Position numbers and translations under genes: made by a program. A model generated the notes under the pieces. It ran no database searches. It had not been told where the DNA came from and was given only the letters and a program-made list of their open reading frames with translations. 64,000 nt of DNA from a virus (lineage: Duplodnaviria; Caudoviricetes): positions 256,001 to 320,000 of the IMG/VR virus record IMGVR_UViG_3300031088_000008. One strand, 5' to 3'. Positions 13,847 through 23,036 of the stretch are shown here, piece by piece (position 1 is the first letter of the stretch; each line of letters opens with the position of its first letter).

Positions 13847-14508
13847 TGGGAAGTCATCTTCCAGGTCTGCGGAACTTGCCAGTACCCGACATGTTCGTGG
13901 AGTTCGCGCACATCTATGCCGACGAGGTGTTTGGCGATGAGCAGCACCAAAGCCTGGATGTCATGAAGGACTATCTGGACAAGAACAGTGATCCCTCGGG
14001 TCTGGTCGTCAGTGCCATCCTGATCGACGAGCTGCATGTCAAAGCCAATACGCTGGACGTCACGGAGTTTATCCGCTGCATTCTGCGGCGTGGCCTTGCT
14101 CCTGACTTCGTGGTCTTTGAGGGCAAGATGGCGCCCGTGGCCGACCTGATCATAAGTCAGCTTCCACAGAAGTATCTTAGCTGGCAGACCATTCGAAAGG
14201 AAAACAAAAAGGTCCTGATGTTTGAGACGCCGATGGGTGATCGTATTGGGCTCAAGAACGTGTGGGATGATCGGGAGGAGCATACCTGCGCGCTGCTCAG
14301 TGCCGCGTGGTCTCTATGTCGTGCTGGCGTTGTACCGTTCCCCGATGATGCAATCGTGCGCTTGACTGAGGCTCCCACTACAGGTCTAAAGGTTGTGAGC
14401 GTCCTTCATAGCAAGTACAAGGGCGTTGAAGAAAAGGTCATCAAGCTGATTCGTGCTGCTGGCCATGAAGACCTCGTTCGTCGCTTTGAACTGGTATTTT
14501 TCGGTTGA
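13846..14508 (+). CDS. SCO2522-like / degenerate class I aaRS-fold (HUP) protein
   Basis: VEFAHIYADE, VSAILIDE, TCALLSAAWSLCRAG, SVLHSKYKGVE recall SCO2522-family motifs (from memory, unverified). Confidence 0.45.
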   Translation: MGSHLPGLRNLPVPDMFVEFAHIYADEVFGDEQHQSLDVMKDYLDKNSDPSGLVVSAILIDELHVKANTLDVTEFIRCILRRGLAPDFVVFEGKMAPVADLIISQLPQKYLSWQTIRKENKKVLMFETPMGDRIGLKNVWDDREEHTCALLSAAWSLCRAGVVPFPDDAIVRLTEAPTTGLKVVSVLHSKYKGVEEKVIKLIRAAGHEDLVRRFELVFFG

Positions 14509-14562
14509 ACACTGGAAACCAGGTTATAAAGTGGGTGAATAGAGGGCAGTAGGAGTTCAACG

Positions 14563-15810
14563 GTGTCGCATATTGATGCAGGAGAAACGGTCAGGGCAGT
14601 GCGCTACCAGAACACCTGGTTGCAGATGGCCGATCTTGGCCTCTCGGACTATCAGATCGACCTGATCCAAAATGCAGAAGGCGTCGCAGGAGCCTGGCCC
14701 GACAACGTTCGAAGCTACGTGATCCGCGCACATCTCTATGATCCTCGTGGCGAAGTTGAGTCCATGAAGAACATGAAGCGCCTCAACATCGTGAGCGTTC
14801 GTGAGGACGGTCGCTACTGGCTTACTGGCAAGGGTGAGCTGTACCGCAAGGCGCTGGTTGAGAATCTCCCAGAGGTCAAGGCCCCCAAGATCAACCTCCC
14901 CGTTGTGGTCGAGGATCAAATGGACATCAACCTGGGCCGCGATGGTCTGATGGTAACGGCCAGCAAGTTCTGGTACGTTTGGACGCATCGTGACGAGATC
15001 AGGGCCGCACGGGACAAGAAGTGGCTTGAGGGCTTTCAGAATGGTCAAAAGGAGATCGATGAAGCGATCACCAAGATCCTGGAGCCCCGCGAACCAATCG
15101 TCCTAAAGCCGGAGCCCAAAGTCAACCCCTACTGGAGTGAAGCCCAGCAGCGTAAGAATAACGATCTGTATTGGATGACCCCGGATGCCTTCTGGCTTAA
15201 TCCTCGTGGCATCCTCGCTGAGCCCACGCCGGCTCCCGACTGGTGGACTGTTCCTGAGAACTATCAGCCCAAGGTCTATATTCCCCTCTCGACTGATGAG
15301 CTGGTCGATCAGAGCCTTCTGCCTCCGCCGACTGTTGGTCCTCAGGGTGTCACCGGCTTCCCAGGAATTCGGCAGGCAACAGCCGAGGAGATCGCGGCCA
15401 AGCATCGTCAGAAGAGTGCCGATATGGTCATTGACGAGATCCTCGCAGAGCTTGATCGTCTTGATGCCGAGCAGGTCCAGGAATATGCGGAGTACGAGTA
15501 CTCCATTGCAAAGAACTTTGATCACCACGATCTGGTCATGGTACAATATGGTGACGAGGTCGCTGGCTTCCCAACTGCACAGGAGGCCAACTTGTGGCTT
15601 GCGGCAAAGAAGCAAGCTGCTCGAATGGCTGAACAGCAGGCATACGTTGACGAAAATCGTCGCCAGCAAAAATTGGCGCAGGACCGCTTGCTCCAAGCTG
15701 CCAAGGCCAAGGTTCGCGGACAGAACAACTTCACGGACAATCGCGGCTACGAATATAGCAGCTACAGCGGGAGCAGCTATGACAGCGGTGGTTCGAGCAG
15801 CGACTGGTAA
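14563..15810 (+). CDS. hypothetical protein, winged-helix-like N-region, Ser/Gly tail
   Basis: REDGRYWLTGKG; ends YSGSSYDSGGSSSDW; AGGAG RBS. Confidence 0.75.
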   Translation: MSHIDAGETVRAVRYQNTWLQMADLGLSDYQIDLIQNAEGVAGAWPDNVRSYVIRAHLYDPRGEVESMKNMKRLNIVSVREDGRYWLTGKGELYRKALVENLPEVKAPKINLPVVVEDQMDINLGRDGLMVTASKFWYVWTHRDEIRAARDKKWLEGFQNGQKEIDEAITKILEPREPIVLKPEPKVNPYWSEAQQRKNNDLYWMTPDAFWLNPRGILAEPTPAPDWWTVPENYQPKVYIPLSTDELVDQSLLPPPTVGPQGVTGFPGIRQATAEEIAAKHRQKSADMVIDEILAELDRLDAEQVQEYAEYEYSIAKNFDHHDLVMVQYGDEVAGFPTAQEANLWLAAKKQAARMAEQQAYVDENRRQQKLAQDRLLQAAKAKVRGQNNFTDNRGYEYSSYSGSSYDSGGSSSDW

Positions 15811-15873
15811 AAAGCGGTTGACGCGCTGCCTATTGGTGCTAACTCTGGTTTATAGGCAAACAGGAGATAGACG

Positions 15874-16233
15874 ATGGACATCGACGAAATGAAGGTTTAT
15901 GCTGCTGAGCACGTTCTCAACGAGCTTTGCGCGCCCAGCCAGGGCAGCATCTATCCCGGACTGGGCGGCATCGGTCGCTATCTCGTTCGCGCAACGGCCC
16001 AGAGCGCGCATGAGAACGCATCCCATCTGGGCAAGGTCGAGACTCCCGCTGGCGGTTTCGAAGCCATGCAGACCGCCGCTGTTCAGGACTTTGTTCTCGG
16101 CATCCTGGGAATGGGTGAGTTCATCGACGAGCGTGGGCTGACGGTTCATCATCGTACGCCAACACAGGCCGCTCAGGAACTGGTCAGCGCGGTCTGGCAC
16201 GCCTACATTGGATGGGCGCAGGCGGCCAAATAA
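15874..16233 (+). CDS. hypothetical protein
   Basis: Promoter cassette, AGGAG. Confidence 0.75.
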   Translation: MDIDEMKVYAAEHVLNELCAPSQGSIYPGLGGIGRYLVRATAQSAHENASHLGKVETPAGGFEAMQTAAVQDFVLGILGMGEFIDERGLTVHHRTPTQAAQELVSAVWHAYIGWAQAAK

Positions 16234-16321
16234 CCGCAACATTCTCAATCCGCTAAGTACAACAGTTATTGATTGTTGAGCGGAGTTGTACCATAATGGG
16301 TTAACTCCTAGGGGATTGAGA

Positions 16322-16768
16322 ATGGACGACCTAACCAGTATTGCGGCTGGGCTCCAGCAGCTTGCCGCCAAAGCAGAAACAAAGAAGCCCAACACGGGCA
16401 CCGAAAACGTCATGATCGTTGATGACGAGCCCATGATCCTTGAGTTCGCAATGGACGTTCTCGAGGATTATGGCTATACGGTCAAGGGCGCCCTAAACGC
16501 CAATGAGGCTATCCAAAAGCTGGTCGGCGGTTTCAAGCCTGCTATCATGTGCTGCGACATTGTGTTGCCGGGTGGTATGAATGGCGTGGAACTTGCGCGG
16601 AAAGTCATGGAAGTGATGCCGGACGTCAAGATCCTGCTTTGCAGCGGATACGGAGCAGGCATGCTCGACGGCAGCAAAAACCAGGATGGCTTCAGCATGT
16701 TGGCTAAGCCCTATCAGGTTGAAGAGCTGGCACAGAGGGTGCGGAATATTCTCGACGGAAAAGAGTAA
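16322..16768 (+). CDS. stand-alone response regulator receiver domain (hybrid-kinase/CckA-type)
   Basis: VMIVDDE, DIVLPGGMNGVELA, ILLCSGY, LAKPY. Confidence 0.92.
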   Translation: MDDLTSIAAGLQQLAAKAETKKPNTGTENVMIVDDEPMILEFAMDVLEDYGYTVKGALNANEAIQKLVGGFKPAIMCCDIVLPGGMNGVELARKVMEVMPDVKILLCSGYGAGMLDGSKNQDGFSMLAKPYQVEELAQRVRNILDGKE

Positions 16769-16835
16769 ATCCTGGTTGACGTGCCAATCTCTCCTCTTTA
16801 TAGGAAGTATTGGAAACGCAGACAGGAGACACCAA

Positions 16836-17204
16836 ATGTCCATCGCAGCAGACGACTACCAGAACACGCAGAACGAAATCGCACGCCGCAATTACGCGCT
16901 GACGACCGAAACGCACGACTGCGAGAACATGCTCCAGATCAAGTGCGGTGGCGAGATTCTCGTTACGGTCTGCCAGCCGGCTGGTCCGACTGTTCCCACG
17001 GAGTTCCTGGTTTTCAACGGTGATGGCCTCGATGCCGAGGACAACGACCTGACGGCCGCCGACGCGGTCAAGGTGTTTCCGGTTCGTCTGGATGTCAATG
17101 ATGCGTGGCGCCAGGCTGCGCGCTTTGGCTATCTTCACGCACTGGCCCGCATGATGACTTCGGATATTCGTCAGGAGACCGAAGAACTGCTGATGATGGC
17201 TTAA
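16836..17204 (+). CDS. hypothetical protein
   Basis: Promoter cassette, AGGAG. Confidence 0.75.
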   Translation: MSIAADDYQNTQNEIARRNYALTTETHDCENMLQIKCGGEILVTVCQPAGPTVPTEFLVFNGDGLDAEDNDLTAADAVKVFPVRLDVNDAWRQAARFGYLHALARMMTSDIRQETEELLMMA

Positions 17205-17731
17205 ACGCCCATCAGCTTTAGCGTTAGGTCACGAAGCCGATACAACGCGGCTTCCTGATCTTTTCGCAACCTACGAGGGATACGGTCGGCAACGCAAATG
17301 GTGCCCACACTGTATCCCTCGCTCGTCGTCAGCGACAATCCAGAATAAAATCTCAGATAATCGTAGGTTCCATTGACGAATGGAAGCCCGCAGACCTGTG
17401 AGTCCGCTTGTGCATCATAGATGATCACGGGCTGGTCGGGGCTTCTCGTCAACAGGTTGCAGAACGTTTCCTCGCGACAATAGCGAAGATCGGGGTTGGG
17501 ACTGCCCGTTAGAAGTGCTTTGTAGATGGTACGTTCGTCATCAATCAAGCTGACGGCCGCGACGGGCGTTTCGCAGATCTGTGATGCCAGGGCTGCGATA
17601 TGTAGGAAGTGCTCGTCTGGGAGTTCTCCGATACGGTCCAAGATTTTGGTTACCGCACAGGCGCGGATCGTCTCGGCCAGTTCTTCGCTCAAGCCTGTAA
17701 CGGCCTTTGCGGTGTTCTCGAGATTGTCCAT
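17201..17731 (-). CDS. stand-alone GAF domain protein
   Basis: LASQICETPVAAVSLID, ETFC, LRFYSG..L.T.EG..VGTICVAD..PR. Confidence 0.88.
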   Translation of the reverse strand: MDNLENTAKAVTGLSEELAETIRACAVTKILDRIGELPDEHFLHIAALASQICETPVAAVSLIDDERTIYKALLTGSPNPDLRYCREETFCNLLTRSPDQPVIIYDAQADSQVCGLPFVNGTYDYLRFYSGLSLTTSEGYSVGTICVADRIPRRLRKDQEAALYRLRDLTLKLMGV

Positions 17732-17868
17732 CGTTTTCTCCTCTTGCTCTATTTAGTGAACAAAAAATGTCCTGGTGTGAAAAAAGCGGTTGACGTAAAC
17801 CAGGACGGCATTAGGTGTGTTGAGGACAGGGCAGCAGTTGTCCTGGGCATAACGAGGAGATCGAAATC

Positions 17869-18186
17869 GTGTCTTACAAGAATCTGAACATCAATGCAGC
17901 AGCAACCCTGGCACTCGTCGGTTCGGCCACCAAGGCTCGGATTCGGATGCGCGGTGAGACTCTGCAGATTCGCTTCACCGATCGCACCTCGCTGGTGAAT
18001 CTCCCCAAGGACGAGCAGGTCGCCAATCTCTCGGTCAAGGGCAACGGTCGTCGGCTCGGTCTGCGGTCGGCATTCGCTGGTCACCTGGAAGCCGGCAGCA
18101 AGGTCGCACTGGCGAACCCCAAGTATGGCTGGTACGATGTCGTGCCGAGCACCGAGAACATCGCAGCTTCGGTCACCGCAAACTGA
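17869..18186 (+). CDS. KYGW-family small beta-rich protein (paralog 1)
   Basis: INAAA...LQIRFTDR..VNLPK.E...KYGWY; paralogs at 54978 and 57993. Confidence 0.75.
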   Translation: MSYKNLNINAAATLALVGSATKARIRMRGETLQIRFTDRTSLVNLPKDEQVANLSVKGNGRRLGLRSAFAGHLEAGSKVALANPKYGWYDVVPSTENIAASVTAN

Positions 18187-18191
18187 TCGGC

Positions 18192-18223
18192 GGGGGAGGG
18201 GATGATCTCCTCTCCCCTCCCCC
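18192..18223 (+). terminator. GC-rich hairpin after the KYGW gene
   Basis: GGGGGAGGGGA...TCCCCTCCCCC (no long U-tract). Confidence 0.55.
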
Positions 18224-18240
18224 TGCATAGGAGAAACGTG

Positions 18241-18405
18241 ATGGCAAAGCTGATCATGGTGACCAAAAAGGGTCGTCATCGGAAAGAACATACTTTCCCC
18301 ATCGAGTTCGATGCCACGCAGGATCCCATCGCACGGGCGGCGGCAATCAGCACTGCAACGGCCAGTCTCCTGGACCCCGTTGTCAACTGGCGGATCGAGG
18401 AATAA
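18241..18405 (+). CDS. small hypothetical protein
   Basis: AGGAG RBS. Confidence 0.6.
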   Translation: MAKLIMVTKKGRHRKEHTFPIEFDATQDPIARAAAISTATASLLDPVVNWRIEE

Positions 18406-18406
18406 A

Positions 18407-18841
18407 ATGGTGTGGGCTGTATTCCAAGACCATCGCGGTGTTCTACATTGCGAGCGCGTCAATGAGGGAATCCAGTGCTGGACCAAAGTTATTCCGGTGC
18501 GGCCCGAGATTCGTAGCTTTCTGGGTCGTGTAATTCAAAAGGGCCGCCAGGAAGAGACGCTTCTCCACACGGTGTTCCTGGAAAAGTTCTACGATCGGAA
18601 GGACTACACCGACAACGCTTTTGAACCCGCTGGTGAAGGCTACACGCTGGATCCTATGATGCGCTACATGAAGACCAACAAGTGGGGTCCCGTGAAGATT
18701 ATGGCGTTCATAAAATGTGACACCACAGGCCAGATACTGCATAGTAAGTTCAAAGCCTTTGAGCCGTTCTCTGAAAGCCAGGGACCCCGGCCGGGCAATG
18801 ATCGACTGGTAGCAATGGTGCATCAGTTGTCGGAGATTTGA
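18407..18841 (+). CDS. hypothetical protein
   Basis: GAGG RBS, operon position. Confidence 0.65.
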   Translation: MVWAVFQDHRGVLHCERVNEGIQCWTKVIPVRPEIRSFLGRVIQKGRQEETLLHTVFLEKFYDRKDYTDNAFEPAGEGYTLDPMMRYMKTNKWGPVKIMAFIKCDTTGQILHSKFKAFEPFSESQGPRPGNDRLVAMVHQLSEI

Positions 18842-18842
18842 T

Positions 18843-19058
18843 GTGGACGCTTTCGTGGGACTTGCTTTCTTATTCGTCGCAGTTTGCATCGTGTGTACCT
18901 TTGTAGTCGTAGGCCTCGCCCTCCTCATTGGTCTCCTGATGCTCATCGGAAAGCTGATTGTCTGGATGGCCTACCTTGGTGTGGTGTTCATTGCCCTGGC
19001 ATTAGTCAGCTGGATCGCGGTTAGTTCATGGCAAGTATTTCGCGACTACTTTTCATAA
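18843..19058 (+). CDS. small hydrophobic membrane protein
   Basis: Almost entirely hydrophobic, GGAG RBS. Confidence 0.65.
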   Translation: MDAFVGLAFLFVAVCIVCTFVVVGLALLIGLLMLIGKLIVWMAYLGVVFIALALVSWIAVSSWQVFRDYFS

Positions 19059-19738
19059 CCGGCACGTTCCTTGCAAGCCCAGTGGCTGCACAGGAACTCA
19101 AGCCACTTTGTCCCGATCGTGGGGCGTTTCAACCCTGCACCGTTGATCCCGGACACATTCAAGTTGAGATTGGTCTCCTTGACTGGTTCCAGGATGCCGA
19201 TGATACCCGTATGATCGCCGATGCGGTTGTCCGGCTGGGACTGGATGACACATCGGAAGTTCAGCTGGCCATGAGCCCCATGGTGCGTAAGAGCTTTGCT
19301 CAGGGTCGTGGTGATCTCCGCCTAAGCTACCGGAAGCGTCTTGTAGAAGGCGACTTCAGCCTAGCAGTCCAGCCCAGTCTCCAGTTGCCAACGGGTTCTC
19401 AGGGGCTCTCTGGTGATCGGTTGATCCCCGGAATTGCCATTGGGAGCACCTACGATCTAACTCCCAGCACTCAATTCTATCTCACGCCCTATGCGGTCAA
19501 GGGTCAGAATCTGCTCGGAGGCACATTTCTAGGTGTCAATCAGATCGTCCATGGTCCACTGGGTGCTTCGGCCGAGGTGATGTTTCAGCATCAAAAGGGC
19601 GAAACGCAGAGCAGTGCGGACTTCACTCTCACTTATACAGTAGGTAGTAGGATGGAGTTCGACACTTCAGCGAACTTCGGTCTAACTAGGCAAACTCCCG
19701 CTGTTGAACTTGTAGTTGGAGTAACGCGTCGCTTCTAG
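19028..19738 (+). CDS. outer-membrane beta-barrel ('transporter', MetA-pathway of phenol degradation-like)
   Basis: Signal peptide (ASPVAAQE), LCPDR...PCTVDPGHIQVE motif, alternating beta strands, C-terminal F. Confidence 0.75.
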   Translation: MASISRLLFITGTFLASPVAAQELKPLCPDRGAFQPCTVDPGHIQVEIGLLDWFQDADDTRMIADAVVRLGLDDTSEVQLAMSPMVRKSFAQGRGDLRLSYRKRLVEGDFSLAVQPSLQLPTGSQGLSGDRLIPGIAIGSTYDLTPSTQFYLTPYAVKGQNLLGGTFLGVNQIVHGPLGASAEVMFQHQKGETQSSADFTLTYTVGSRMEFDTSANFGLTRQTPAVELVVGVTRRF

Positions 19739-19784
19739 TGTGAAGTGTGGGGAATCGCAGAATTCTGCGGCTCTGAGGAGTAGA

Positions 19785-19909
19785 CACTTACAAGGGCACT
19801 TACAAGGGCACTTACAAGGGCACTTACAAGGGCACTTACAAGGGCACTTACAAGGGCACTTACAAGGGCACTTACAAGGGCACTTACAAGGGCACTTACA
19901 AGGGCACTT
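19785..19909. repeat. perfect tandem repeat, 10 x CACTTACAAGGG plus CACTT
   Basis: Directly visible; intergenic, no spacers. Confidence 0.98.
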
Positions 19910-19954
19910 CAACATAGTTGTTGACAAGTTGCTAATTTCAGTTAGTTGATGTGC

Positions 19955-20027
19955 AGTTGATGTTGACCTTGGTTGGCCACTGACATCAGTATTCAAAGGC
20001 GGTTGCTTCGGCGGCCGCCTTTTTTCT
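19955..20027 (+). ncRNA. putative small antisense RNA
   Basis: TTGACA at 19921; hairpin TGATGT/ACATCA with loop TTGGTTGGCCAC complementary to 20091-20102; terminator 19995-20026. Confidence 0.55.
19995..20026 (+). terminator. intrinsic terminator
   Basis: AAAGGCGGTTGC-TTCG-GCGGCCGCCTTTTTT. Confidence 0.85.
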
Positions 20028-20158
20028 TGCCTGAGCACTCTTTTTCTGCTTGACGCGAGTAGAACACGGTTACATTAAGGACAGCGCAAGGTGGCCAACC
20101 AAAACACTTTGTAAAAAGTAAAGCAAGCAACGTGCTTGCTACAGAAAAGGTTAACGTT

Positions 20159-20761
20159 ATGAAGAACACTCGCTTTGAAACCGGCTGCAATCTCCCGGGT
20201 CTGGAATCGCTCGTCATTGGGCAGTATGGCGCCTCGCTGTCGAAGAACAACAACCAGACGCCGGCCATGATGGTGCTGCTCTTCACGTTCGATACTGCGG
20301 AGGAGCGCAACAAATATCGGTATGTTCGCATCGAACAGGCCGGTGAGGGATATCTGGCCCGCCTGATGCAGAATCGTGCTCCAGGCTATCTGAGCAAGGG
20401 AGAAACTGCCGCAGTAAAACTCGGCGACTACAATAACTCCACTCGCCAGGCGTCTGCAGGTCGCGCGCAGAGCTGGCTGGGCCTCGATGATGTGATGTCC
20501 GAAATGGGCAAGAACACTGCGGTCATCAGCTGCATCAGCGAAGCGTATGATGACTACCAGGGCAACGGTCCGGAGATGCACGTCTACTTTACCGTTGAAG
20601 CAGTTCGCAACGTTTCGGAAACCACGACCACTGAGCCGCTTCTGGATTCGCTCCCGGCTGCTGAAAAGTTCATCATTGACATGAGCCTCCCAGCCGACGT
20701 GATCGCAAAGCTTCTGGATGTTGCCAAGATCAAGGGACAGGTTCCCGAATACCAGTTCTAA
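20159..20761 (+). CDS. hypothetical protein with long structured leader
   Basis: Promoter TTGACG-17-TACATT at 20050-20077; AAAAGG RBS; ATG 20159. Confidence 0.75.
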   Translation: MKNTRFETGCNLPGLESLVIGQYGASLSKNNNQTPAMMVLLFTFDTAEERNKYRYVRIEQAGEGYLARLMQNRAPGYLSKGETAAVKLGDYNNSTRQASAGRAQSWLGLDDVMSEMGKNTAVISCISEAYDDYQGNGPEMHVYFTVEAVRNVSETTTTEPLLDSLPAAEKFIIDMSLPADVIAKLLDVAKIKGQVPEYQF

Positions 20762-20827
20762 AATCCTGGTTGACACCGGCCACCAGTCTGCTAGGACTGG
20801 TGGCGTAGGTGCAACAGGAGATCGAAA

Positions 20828-21076
20828 ATGGCAGCGCGTCTTATTAGCATGGAAGAGATGAAGTCGATGGTGGATCGCATGTGCGACCCCACGCTCGATG
20901 GTGAGGGTCTCATCCGCGTAATGAACGAAGCTGCCCGCGCAGTTGGTGTCGACAATCGCCGCCGAGTTTCCATCAAGGAAAACTCCCACCGGGTTGCGGT
21001 ACGCAACGCATCCGCAACCGGCGATCTCGCGGAACTCCGCCGACTGGCAAACAAAAATCTCACGGGCCGCCGCTAA
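20828..21076 (+). CDS. hypothetical protein
   Basis: Promoter 20766-20804, AGGAGATCGAA. Confidence 0.75.
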   Translation: MAARLISMEEMKSMVDRMCDPTLDGEGLIRVMNEAARAVGVDNRRRVSIKENSHRVAVRNASATGDLAELRRLANKNLTGRR

Positions 21077-21210
21077 TGGAGGAGCAGATCAAAGCTCTGA
21101 TCACCAAGTGGCGTGAGCAGTCCGATTATAGCTGGAGCATTGGTGACGATGGTGCAGGTCGTGCATGGTCTGAAGCCGCTGACCAGTTGGAAGAGGAGTT
21201 GAACGCATGA
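21076..21210 (+). CDS. small hypothetical protein (44 aa, not in track)
   Basis: TAATG coupling; MEEQIKALITKWREQ...AADQLEEELNA. Confidence 0.6.
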   Translation: MEEQIKALITKWREQSDYSWSIGDDGAGRAWSEAADQLEEELNA

Positions 21211-21461
21211 AGGTGTTCGTACTCATGCGCCACTATCTGGAAGACTACAGTCATCCATTCAATGAACCCGAGCGCATCACGGAGTTCAAGGGCGTCTATG
21301 CAAGCCGCAAGGATGCCGACACGGCCAAGGATCGTGCCGATGAACGTGCCAAGCTGCCCAAGTATGCAAGGCTGCAAGAGCGCTACGTGGTTATCGAGAC
21401 GGACGTCCTCGGGCTGTTTCCCGAGGACACCGTGATCATGAGGCGTATGTCAGGCCTCTGA
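21207..21461 (+). CDS. hypothetical protein
   Basis: ATGA overlap, GAGGAG; MKVFVL...KGVYAS. Confidence 0.7.
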   Translation: MKVFVLMRHYLEDYSHPFNEPERITEFKGVYASRKDADTAKDRADERAKLPKYARLQERYVVIETDVLGLFPEDTVIMRRMSGL

Positions 21462-22079
21462 AACCTTCGCTGCTTCAAGTTCCGCAACAGTGATAACTCG
21501 TTCGGTCTTGACATCCTGCCCACCCCAAGTCAGCTTGAACAATAGGGCGTCCTTGGGGTCCTTGAAGTAAAAGTTACCGCGCGACCAGCCGCTCATCATG
21601 CAGCGTTCCTGGTCGTCGCCAAACTGTTCCTTGCACCAAGCCTGCATCTCACGAACGTTCTCGCTGCTGGTCTGCCAGTAGCTTAGTCGAGTGTGACTTA
21701 CCCGTAGGCACATCCTATACTTGCTGTAGAACAGTTGCTTTCGAGTGATCAGCTTGTCGTTGCTTTCCAGCATCTGAGTGTGCTCTTCACTCAGTGGCTT
21801 TTCCAGCACACTGATAAAGTCCTCACCAACTTGTTCCTTCAAGTATTCAAAGACCACTGGATCCTTGAAGAACACTGAGCATTGCTGGCTTTTGTGAACA
21901 TAGCTGTAGGTGCTTACCGTGCGCCAACCGCCGTCAGGAAAACGCTTGTTCAGCAGCCACTCCACTGTTTCAGCGGTTGGCTTGATTACTGGTTCCCGGT
22001 AGCCACTAGTCCTTGCATTGATGACCAGGCGGTGGTCATACTTCTTGTAATAGATCTTCTTTGTAAACTGAGTTTCCAT
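21450..22079 (-). CDS. two-module DAxxFKL-family protein
   Basis: VFFKDP in module 1; AWCKEQFG...FYFKDPKDALLFKLTWG in module 2. Confidence 0.8.
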   Translation of the reverse strand: METQFTKKIYYKKYDHRLVINARTSGYREPVIKPTAETVEWLLNKRFPDGGWRTVSTYSYVHKSQQCSVFFKDPVVFEYLKEQVGEDFISVLEKPLSEEHTQMLESNDKLITRKQLFYSKYRMCLRVSHTRLSYWQTSSENVREMQAWCKEQFGDDQERCMMSGWSRGNFYFKDPKDALLFKLTWGGQDVKTERVITVAELEAAKVSEA

Positions 22080-22087
22080 CGAGCCTC

Positions 22088-22348
22088 CTACAGCGACAAA
22101 CGTAAAAGCGTCGCGTCTCGATCGTCGTAGGCTATGATGTGGGCTTCCAGATCAGTCTTCCCATAGACATCACTGGGAAAGAACTTGGGATACCAAGCTA
22201 CTGGTTTGTTCCACTTGGTGTCTTTGAGCCTCGTTATCAGCTCTACATATTCCTCGCCGTCCACGTCAATAATCCAGTGGTGGGCGGTCTCGTTGCCATA
22301 TGCAAACGCAAGGGTGCTACCAGGTTCGGCATAGGTCTTGATCTTCAT
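22088..22348 (-). CDS. DAxxFKL-family small protein
   Basis: ends YDDRDATLLRLSL. Confidence 0.7.
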   Translation of the reverse strand: MKIKTYAEPGSTLAFAYGNETAHHWIIDVDGEEYVELITRLKDTKWNKPVAWYPKFFPSDVYGKTDLEAHIIAYDDRDATLLRLSL

Positions 22349-22387
22349 GCAGTGACATTACGCGGGCATAACCCTGCGCGTCACTAT

Positions 22388-22699
22388 TCACATGGACAGT
22401 TTGAACCGGAGCGCGTCACCGGGATCTTTGAAGCAGAACTTCTTCTCGTGGATGATCGTCATGTTGCTGACAACCGAGGACTTCTTGCCTTGCTTGATCA
22501 TGGACAAGATAAAGGAAGTCATGTTGCCACTAGCGGGAGAACCATCGGGCAGGAATGCCTTGGTGACCACTGGATAGTCCATTACCCACATGGTCGCACT
22601 GGTCTTGACCCATTGCTCAGCTTTAGCGATCTCTTCCGCGGATCCTTCGATGTGGATCCACGTGAGCTCGTCCACCTTTTGCATCCGGGTAAAGCGCAT
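22388..22699 (-). CDS. DAxxFKL-family small protein
   Basis: ends FCFKDPGDALRFKLSM. Confidence 0.75.
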   Translation of the reverse strand: MRFTRMQKVDELTWIHIEGSAEEIAKAEQWVKTSATMWVMDYPVVTKAFLPDGSPASGNMTSFILSMIKQGKKSSVVSNMTIIHEKKFCFKDPGDALRFKLSM

Positions 22700-22959
22700 C
22701 AGTAACTCAACTTGAAGAGAGTGGCGTCCTGTTTGCAGTAAAAGACGAATGCCATGTAGTGAGGACGATCAGCAAACGGTCCCGAGTAGTCGTGGCGACC
22801 ACTGCTGGGCTCGGCTAGACCCACTTCCACCTTTTCGGACCACTGGCGCCCAAGGACTTGTTCCTTTACGGATTCCAGATCGCGCATCGTGCCCTCGCAC
22901 CATACCCAAGTGGATCCGTCGTTGGACCAGTTGCTCATCGTGCTTTTGAAAGTGACCAC
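22699..22959 (-). CDS. DAxxFKL-family small protein
   Basis: ends FVFYCKQDATLFKLSY. Confidence 0.7.
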   Translation of the reverse strand: MVTFKSTMSNWSNDGSTWVWCEGTMRDLESVKEQVLGRQWSEKVEVGLAEPSSGRHDYSGPFADRPHYMAFVFYCKQDATLFKLSY

Positions 22960-23036
22960 AGATGCTTCTTCCGTTACTCAAATGGGTGGGGAGCAACCCT
23001 CGCTGCTCCCCTTGGTCTTGACGTTTCCTTGACTGC

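Follow-up and report, generated by a model that had tools for sequence, protein, structure and literature searches.

Most of the known small RNAs (sRNAs) of phages stem from prophages of model bacteria, according to the review PMC12197685. The same review describes the c4 RNA of phages P1 and P7 as a 77-nt molecule that acts in trans on the ant mRNA around its ribosome-binding site, with the complementary sequences probably located in loops, and as the basis of the heteroimmunity of these two phages. In this work, we analyze a locus at positions 19785-20761 of a 64,000-nt window, that is, the whole stretch of DNA under study, which corresponds to bases 256001-320000 of the 416,714-bp IMG/VR virus record IMGVR_UViG_3300031088_000008. 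The locus combines a tandem array of a 12-bp unit, a candidate sRNA gene and the leader of a gene for a 200-aa protein, P0001. Judged by sequence comparison, it is probably an sRNA switch, a well-supported candidate with natural compensatory alleles and a swappable cargo gene, and the c4 RNA (icd-ant, immI) appears to be the closest known system by its mode of action. The elements of the locus are the following.

19785-19909, plus strand: tandem array of CACTTACAAGGG (Tandem Repeats Finder, TRF: period 12, 10.4 copies, 100% matches).
19921-19948, plus strand: P1, the predicted promoter of the sRNA, with TTGACA (19921-19926), 11 nt and then TCAGTTAG (19938-19945), a variant of the main promoter class of the phage.
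19955-20028, plus strand: predicted sRNA of ~74 nt, with a 5' hairpin, an A/U-rich spacer and an intrinsic terminator, both ends being predictions.
19958-19981, plus strand: continuous antisense stretch of the sRNA, 24 nt; in the cofold, 19969-19981 pairs with B1 and 19958-19968 with B2.
19995-20028, plus strand: intrinsic terminator, a 12-pair G+C-rich stem (19995-20022) followed by a T run, unchanged in the contig of run X2 (see below).
20041-20079, plus strand: P2, the candidate promoter of the mRNA, with a T tract, TTGACG (20050-20055) and a weak -10 region; its promoter function is putative.
20090-20102, plus strand: target site B1 in the leader, close to its 5' end: GTGGCCAACCAA with G20090 as a wobble pair, facing sRNA 19969-19981.
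20122-20140, plus strand: leader hairpin AGCAAGCA/UGCUUGCU (GCAAGCA/UGCUUGC, a predicted fold), containing the conserved block CAAGCAACG.
20149-20159, plus strand: target site B2, GGUUAACGUUA, which starts at the tail of the Shine-Dalgarno sequence and reaches the A of AUG, with 11 pairs to sRNA 19958-19968, 3 of them G.U.
20159-20761, plus strand: the regulated gene P0001, 200 aa, with a predicted beta-sandwich, a Thr/Pro-rich linker and a conserved C-terminal helix.

Many of these elements had been noted in an original prediction made from the letters of the window, and the present analysis bears them out: the ten perfect copies of the repeat, the TTGACA box, the strong terminator, the leader hairpin, the 200-aa open reading frame and an RNA hairpin, UGAUGU/ACAUCA, that bears the 12-mer TTGGTTGGCCAC in its loop (box A, 19969-19980). 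The region 19950-20030 folds at -29.0 kcal/mol (z = -2.72), and none of 200 shuffles folded as well. The exact reverse complement of box A in the leader, at 20091-20102, is its sole partner, the two being the only exact copies in the genome. The likeness to c4 lies in an RNA of ~74 nt, encoded on the same strand just upstream of its target, with a loop-borne seed, a second contact over the Shine-Dalgarno sequence and start, and pairing letters that differ between close strains. The c4 RNA is cut out of the same transcript as its target, whereas the RNA described here has its own terminator and its target has a second, candidate promoter. Further differences from P1 and P7 are a target without homology to the antirepressor, a 12-bp array ahead of the promoter and a host genome that is that of a 417-kb phage. 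A match to Rfam, C4 included, is also lacking even at E up to 10: cmscan of 19600-20300 at this limit returned ten weak matches, none of them C4, and the whole window gave none at gathering scores, so that by this test the RNA does not belong to the C4 family.

The comparison drew on three related loci, L010, L013 and L014, and on contigs of four sequencing runs aligned on 19028-21461. L010 is a 3,122-bp metagenome contig that encodes P0005, a homologue of P0001, and is syntenic with window positions 16836-20761, without two upstream genes. L013 lies within a 277-kb IMG/VR record, was found through the outer-membrane-like gene upstream of the array and is syntenic with 14000-19738; L014 lies within a 462-kb record and shares only this upstream gene, which is followed there by ordinary genes. 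By synteny, the module accompanies the downstream gene and not the upstream one. In IMG/VR, the 277-kb relative is listed as a provirus with 60% completeness, and direct terminal repeats with 100% completeness are recorded for the 462-kb one; these assignments bear on any immunity-like reading of the locus.

At the homologous places, L010 has UGUCUUUGGUCGG and its exact 13-nt complement, and in L013 CUUGGUCGGGCGCC faces GGCGCCCGACCAAG, an exact 14-nt complement, with flanking letters different from those of the window in both cases. The boxes have the core UUGGU(U/C)GG in common, and the matched stretch extends from it in a different direction in each lineage. The longest Watson-Crick match was reached by 6 of 5000 shuffles for the window (12 nt), by one of 5000 for L010 (13 nt) and by none of 3000 for L013 (14 nt). 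In the three-way alignment, which comprises 17 pairs, 86.3% of the 51 cells are paired, compared with 25-43% when the partner columns are slid by 1-3; five of the 17 pairs are altered on both sides, and this is attained by one of 500 shuffles. The layout of 5' hairpin, spacer and terminator is also found in L010 and L013, with structural equivalents of the terminator in both, and in the predicted folds of the free sRNA from all three lineages the pairing core is located in the loop of the first hairpin.

The most detailed comparison is provided by run X2, in which one 1,625-nt contig, ~95% like the window, spans both sites. Between 19867 and 20420 it differs from the window by 25 substitutions and 7 gap letters, a list that is complete since the listed differences equal the totals stated for that piece. 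Three of the substitutions are located within sRNA 19958-19981, and all three are compensated in the mRNA: 19966 A>U with 20151 U>A, 19973 U>A with 20098 A>U, and 19974 U>C with 20097 A>G. Three further changes, in the mRNA, are wobble switches, 20090 G>A and 20156 G>A turning U.G into U-A and 20153 A>G turning U-A into U.G. All 24 pairs are held in both alleles, with 41 Watson-Crick pairs, 7 G.U pairs and no mismatch among the 48. The changes are unevenly spread over the locus: none in 19906-19953, which includes P1; seven in 19954-19993; one in 19994-20077, the terminator and P2 block; 14 substitutions and 5 indels in the 79 nt of leader 20078-20156; and two in the first 262 nt of the gene, resulting in the single residue difference seen in the protein P0007. 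The pairing letters differ between strains and co-vary, so that each sRNA fits its own leader. Selection on the sRNA-leader pairing is strongly supported by these alignments, with compensatory changes in one near strain and two distant relatives, and so is the claim of the original prediction that an sRNA pairs with the leader of the next gene in the manner of c4. The question it raised of whether the complementarity is kept in related phages finds a positive answer in 24 pairs in X2, 13 nt in L010 and 14 nt in L013.

Joint change of two sites would also be expected of co-evolving operators, and the boxes, an inverted pair ~110 bp apart flanking a promoter-like block, could be taken as a duplicated operator whose binding protein would bend the DNA around P2 into a loop. 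We give this explanation very little credence. Counted over both near alleles, seven of the 48 pairs depart from Watson-Crick, and each of the seven is G.U on the plus strand (C.A on the other), which favours pairing of plus-strand RNA over a DNA repeat, and three single changes toggle between wobble and Watson-Crick pairs. The paired stretch furthermore extends differently in each lineage (12, 13, 13 and 14 nt), the boxes are not palindromes, and the binding protein would need a new specificity between strains that are 95% alike.

When the sRNA (19955-20028) is cofolded with the leader (20084-20175), the predicted gain is -21.9 kcal/mol, and the corresponding gains are -10.5 kcal/mol for L010 and -31.3 kcal/mol for L013; mixed sRNA-leader pairs from the window and L010 gain only -0.1 and -3.8 kcal/mol. 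Pairing over the ribosome-binding site and start codon comprises 11 pairs in the window and X2 and 9 pairs in L013. The B2 duplex of the window, taken alone, has -13.4 kcal/mol, and 17 of 2000 shuffled segments are as good; the counterpart in L013 consists of 9 Watson-Crick pairs between ACAGUUGGU, the 5' hairpin arm, and ACCAACUGU, which spans the GUG start (-16.2 kcal/mol, with 3 of 2000 shuffles as good). The terminator loop and the leader also share a 7-nt match, which L010 has not retained and which was dropped. Pairing with the leader 5' end together with the Shine-Dalgarno and start region implies translational repression, as with c4 of P1. We regard it as likely that the locus is an RNA switch placed ahead of a swappable gene, in which the ~74-nt sRNA represses translation of that gene. 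In this mechanism, P1, which belongs to the TTGAC-type class of the phage itself, would drive an sRNA ending at the strong intrinsic terminator, and the weaker P2 would give rise to an mRNA for the next gene that begins a few bases ahead of B1. The loop of the 5' hairpin would pair first with B1 at the 5' end of the leader, and the duplex would then spread into the 5' arm of the hairpin, which would pair with B2, the Shine-Dalgarno tail and start codon. One 24-nt stretch of the sRNA would in this way clamp two distant segments of the mRNA and block ribosome binding; the occasional transcript from P1 that reads through the terminator would be blocked likewise, in cis.

The read-through transcripts also form the basis of an alternative, in which the leader acts only in cis: P1 would be the promoter of the gene, the terminator an attenuator and P2 no promoter, and the boxes would pair only in read-through RNA, with no sRNA acting in trans. 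The full transcript from P1 to the start codon does fold with the same pairing of box A to its complement and to the Shine-Dalgarno sequence (window, -83.8 kcal/mol, z = -5.4; L010, z = -4.6), and the weak, non-conserved -10 region of P2 would fit as well. Against it stands the strength of the terminator, with its 12-pair G+C-rich stem and T run, which B1 and B2 cannot stop from forming since they are transcribed after it. The T tract and TTGACG, moreover, constitute the best-kept non-coding block in the three lineages (TTTTCTGYTTGACGCGRG in the window and L010, TTTTTTCGGTTGACGAGGG in L013), are unique in the genome and are free of changes in X2 (none in 20030-20077), a conservation that the model leaves unexplained. 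On balance, control exclusively in cis appears unlikely. P1 itself fits the main promoter class, which k-mer enrichment upstream of genes and inspection define as TTGAC[AG]-N11-GGTG[CT]TA[AG], save for the first bases of the second block, and its TTGACA and AGTTAGT are kept in L010 and L013; a transcription start at P1 is a prediction from sequence.

Several observations weigh against a trans-acting sRNA switch. Judged by numbers only, an inverted pair of 12 nt is no more than chance would yield in this genome: the genome contains 8 distinct inverted pairs of at least 12 nt at gaps of 40-200 nt, and ten Markov shuffles gave 0-9 12-mer hits (mean 4.8), so that the significance of the pairing comes from the complementarity kept in relatives and not from the 12-nt count. 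These relatives amount to three independent lineages and one strain, X2 is an assembled contig rather than raw reads, and L014 is without the module beside its homologue of the upstream gene. The B2-type site of L010 is not significant (441 of 2000 shuffles are as good), and the leader of L010 may sequester its own Shine-Dalgarno sequence instead, in which case the direction of control could differ. A genome-wide target scan fails to single out P0001, the best other duplexes having -32 to -31 kcal/mol and shuffled seeds reaching -25 to -31.4 kcal/mol; plain RNAduplex on long sequences was uninformative. The second promoter of the original prediction stands as far as its -35 box, TTGACG at 20050-20055, is concerned; its -10 region is weak and not conserved among lineages, and a simple sigma-70 scan of 18800-21600 passes no promoter, neither P1 nor P2. 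None of the 19 listed runs is an RNA run, which has no bearing on expression. Finally, the array differs threefold in copy number between strains, which is also compatible with a neutral repeat.

The gene behind the switch differs between relatives. Among 1.84 billion representatives, only three are homologous to P0001, namely P0003 and P0004 (50% identity) and P0005 of L010 (~35-36%); homologues starting with the same residues support the ATG as its start. It matches no Pfam, PHROG, NCBIfam or PADLOC family and no PDB sequence. The AlphaFold model, built from 4 sequences (mean predicted local distance difference test, pLDDT, 76; predicted template-modelling score, pTM, 0.65), consists mainly of beta structure, besides a disordered linker and a helix at the C terminus. 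Foldseek gave nothing against PDB and BFVD at E up to 0.001, the ESM Atlas nothing usable, and the best wide score in VIA-align (Z = 4.2) falls on generic beta-sandwiches, so the structure search suggested by the original prediction yields no fold that stands out. The gene behind this front-end in L013 encodes a protein of 178 aa with an HTH_23 helix-turn-helix (HTH) domain, which passes the cut-off at E = 2.1e-07 and 31 bits, and with another, weak HTH; a homologue of P0001 was found neither in the L013 record nor in the L014 record. With the front-end kept and the gene of L013 an unrelated HTH protein, the regulated gene is swappable.

The general plan of the locus also invites comparison with toxin-antitoxin systems. 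In type I systems with neighbouring, non-overlapping antitoxin RNAs, such as tisB/istR-1 and zorO/orzO, a short RNA likewise lies beside its target and pairs over a short stretch of the 5' untranslated region; unlike in these systems, the two RNAs described here are arranged in tandem, not divergently, and the targets, which are not known to be toxic, are soluble proteins of 200 and 178 aa rather than small hydrophobic peptides. The order of tandem repeats, terminator and a ~200-aa gene resembles that of type III, ToxIN-like systems, in which the ToxI repeat unit has 36 nt. The unit here has 12 nt, a promoter and a separate hairpin RNA lie between array and terminator, PADLOC gives no hit for P0001, no solved structure stands out as a match, and the cargo of L013 is an HTH protein. 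The earlier idea of a toxin switch finds no support, the targets being a soluble beta-sandwich and an HTH protein and PADLOC finding nothing.

The cargo is also altered in contigs that closely resemble the window. In runs X1 and X6, contigs with flanks ~97% identical to the window carry a second allele of the cassette, in which 99 other letters stand in place of 19797-19955, and the leader and gene (20033-20758) give way to 713 letters without an alignment at 80%. The intervening 19956-20032 is kept with 7 differences, including 19974 U>C, and box A of this allele reads TTGGTCGGCCAC. Run X1 has both forms, at depths of ~177 (window type) and ~64 (second allele). By these alignments, 19797-20758 is a hypervariable island between conserved genes. 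A further site concerns the same box: the start region of a minus-strand gene at genome 337251-337262 (window-equivalent 81251) carries GUGGCCGACCAA, which matches box A of the second allele exactly and the window sRNA with one G.U pair. The duplex predicted there has -31.0 kcal/mol, within the range of shuffled seeds, and the site could be a second target or a chance match.

The array ends 12 bp upstream of the -35 box of P1 and is the sole perfect multi-copy array among 17 TRF rows with a score of at least 60 in the whole 416,714-bp record. With at most one mismatch, its unit matches 11 places in the genome, ten in the array and one, with a single mismatch, at genome 197309. The contig of run X2 skips 84 bases of the array, which leaves 3.4 copies compared with 10.4 in the window; at 41 nt, the array of X2 is too short for a cycle of 31-mers, so the difference is plausibly real, although an assembly collapse may also account for it. 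In run X1 the array forms a separate 42-nt piece of depth 1275, compared with ~177 for the window-type flank, a ratio consistent with about ten copies there. An array of 12-bp period lies between the upstream gene and P1 in three lineages, the window, L010 and L013. That of L013 has 6.6 copies of ACTTCTAACCAT (97% matches) and ends 38 bp before P1. That of L010 has 6.9 copies with 64% matches and a match fraction of 0.54 at lag 12 compared with ~0.2 at other lags; being degenerate, it is presumably old. L010 also has a single copy that is 11/12 identical to the unit of the window, a similarity reached by none of 100 shuffles. The units are related across lineages, CACTTACAAGGG in the window, CACTGCAAGTAG or CACTACAACTAG, and TACTTCTAACCA, with the blocks ACT(T/G) and (C/T)AA in common (identified partly by eye). 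To judge from these lineages, a 12-bp-period repeat is retained or regenerated at one place, with a varying copy number.

What the array does is a question apart from the RNA pairing. It is plausible, at somewhat less than an even guess, that its copies serve as a series of sites bound by a conserved factor, of the phage or the host, which would act on P1 and set the output of the sRNA, with the copy number drifting. The original prediction had assigned the binding to the ORF product, which is doubtful: P0001 shows no DNA-binding fold or family, and L013 has kept related 12-bp arrays despite an unrelated downstream gene, so that a cargo protein is an unlikely binder. A neutral variable number tandem repeat, generated by slippage, with no function beyond spacing and unrelated to the RNA switch, deserves serious consideration even if we incline away from it. 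The perfect identity of the ten copies suggests recent expansion, no array-binding protein has been identified, and the free variation in copy number that had been named as evidence for neutrality is partly seen, in the 10.4 copies of the window and 3.4 of X2. Neutral slippage fits less well with three lineages that each have an array of this period at that place, with related units, with the 11/12 copy kept in L010 or with the age that the degeneracy of the L010 array implies.

A third reading, already proposed in the original prediction, is that of an iteron-type replication origin or a partition centromere. Several direct repeats directly upstream of a promoter, which could be covered by protein, are also a feature of the tubC and parC centromeres as described in PMC6009700; no other array of this kind exists in the genome, and this one lies close to a local turning point of the GC skew that coincides with a strand switch. 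This switch, from plus to minus near window position 21455 (~genome 275 kb), is where the strand convergence had been predicted, and the cumulative skew throughout tracks gene orientation, as does the turning point. Unlike at the centromeres, no gene for a centromere-binding protein or motor was found beside the array or in the record, and the array is placed ahead of an sRNA gene. Within the record, which IMG/VR classes as linear and for which CheckV estimates ~90% completeness, searches found no Rep_3 (PF01051), for which control genomes were matched, and no tubulin, ParB (ParB_N) or ParA/CbiA, and the neighbouring genes are without such families; a ParM/StbA search of the record had no match, its control being also without a match. 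No AT-rich unwinding stretch was found either, the lowest G+C fraction per 100 nt in 19000-21000 being 0.41 in a record of ~53% G+C. Together with the threefold difference in copy number between strains, this makes an origin or centromere very improbable.

Beyond the preferred switch, a broader interpretation can be formulated, in which the array, sRNA and leader would form a portable RNA lock-and-key front-end gating any cargo at a hypervariable island of 280-460-kb phages. The sRNA-leader pairs would be orthogonal between co-occurring strains, of which the two alleles coexisting in run X1 are cited as an instance, and would provide strain-specific, heteroimmunity-like control in co-infection, with the array as a copy-number-tunable platform setting the sRNA dose. 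We consider this extended proposal rather doubtful.

Searches for further instances of the module were as follows. Positions 18000-23000 of the window gave no match to GenBank phages, either by DNA or by protein. IMG/VR scans with P0001, an alignment of P0001, the array, and the neighbour gene and its alignment, and a genome_contigs scan, returned nothing related; a weak 29-residue match, L009, the only one from one of these scans, was not used. A pattern for the P2 block had two chance matches inside unrelated coding DNA. A three-block pattern hit 18 loci, one being the L013 record and 17 unrelated, with 15 coding look-alikes and two inverted repeats at divergent promoters, in L028 (8530-8654) and L029 (10625-10744). 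In these two unrelated IMG/VR contigs a 13-nt inverted repeat on TTGGTTGG/CCAACCAA letters brackets a divergent promoter region without a terminator and looks like an ordinary operator pair, not like this module.

In a rough map of 662 genes, the locus sits in a gap of 393-420 bp, among the ~20 largest of the genome. The 8-mer of the main promoter class occurs at 41 places, mostly intergenic, and is frequently preceded by CTGG, with examples at window 20768-20800, 10823 and 6364; the first is a full main-class promoter located before the gene that follows P0001. The idea that the -10 element of main promoters lies in a hairpin loop was rejected, as only 2 of 19 strict matches have arms of at least 6 bp, about as many as random positions. 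Upstream regions also show a second motif, TAAATA, in 61 of 337 cases (~17-fold enriched), which may be a sign of another temporal class. The product of the gene upstream of the array (window 19028-19738) has 236 aa, begins like a signal peptide and ends in Phe, and its relatives contain PF13557, a family of outer-membrane beta-barrels. For a phage, such a gene is unusual; it is conserved in the 277-kb and 462-kb records, has a homologue on a 468-kb JGI contig and is absent from L010. About 4.2 kb before the window, genome 251828-251973 holds a 26-nt perfect inverted repeat with a gap of ~120 nt, the longest of its kind in the genome.

With this locus, an uncultured ~417-kb phage from plant-surface metagenomes offers a candidate sRNA that would regulate a gene of the phage itself. 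The candidate would act as a two-site clamp on its mRNA, with a cargo gene that is exchanged between relatives, and the natural compensatory alleles amount to a four-way swap design supplied by nature. The switch would also provide the first handle on a rapidly diversifying protein family with only those three homologues. If the array binds a factor, it would represent a rare case of a tandem repeat tuning an sRNA promoter.

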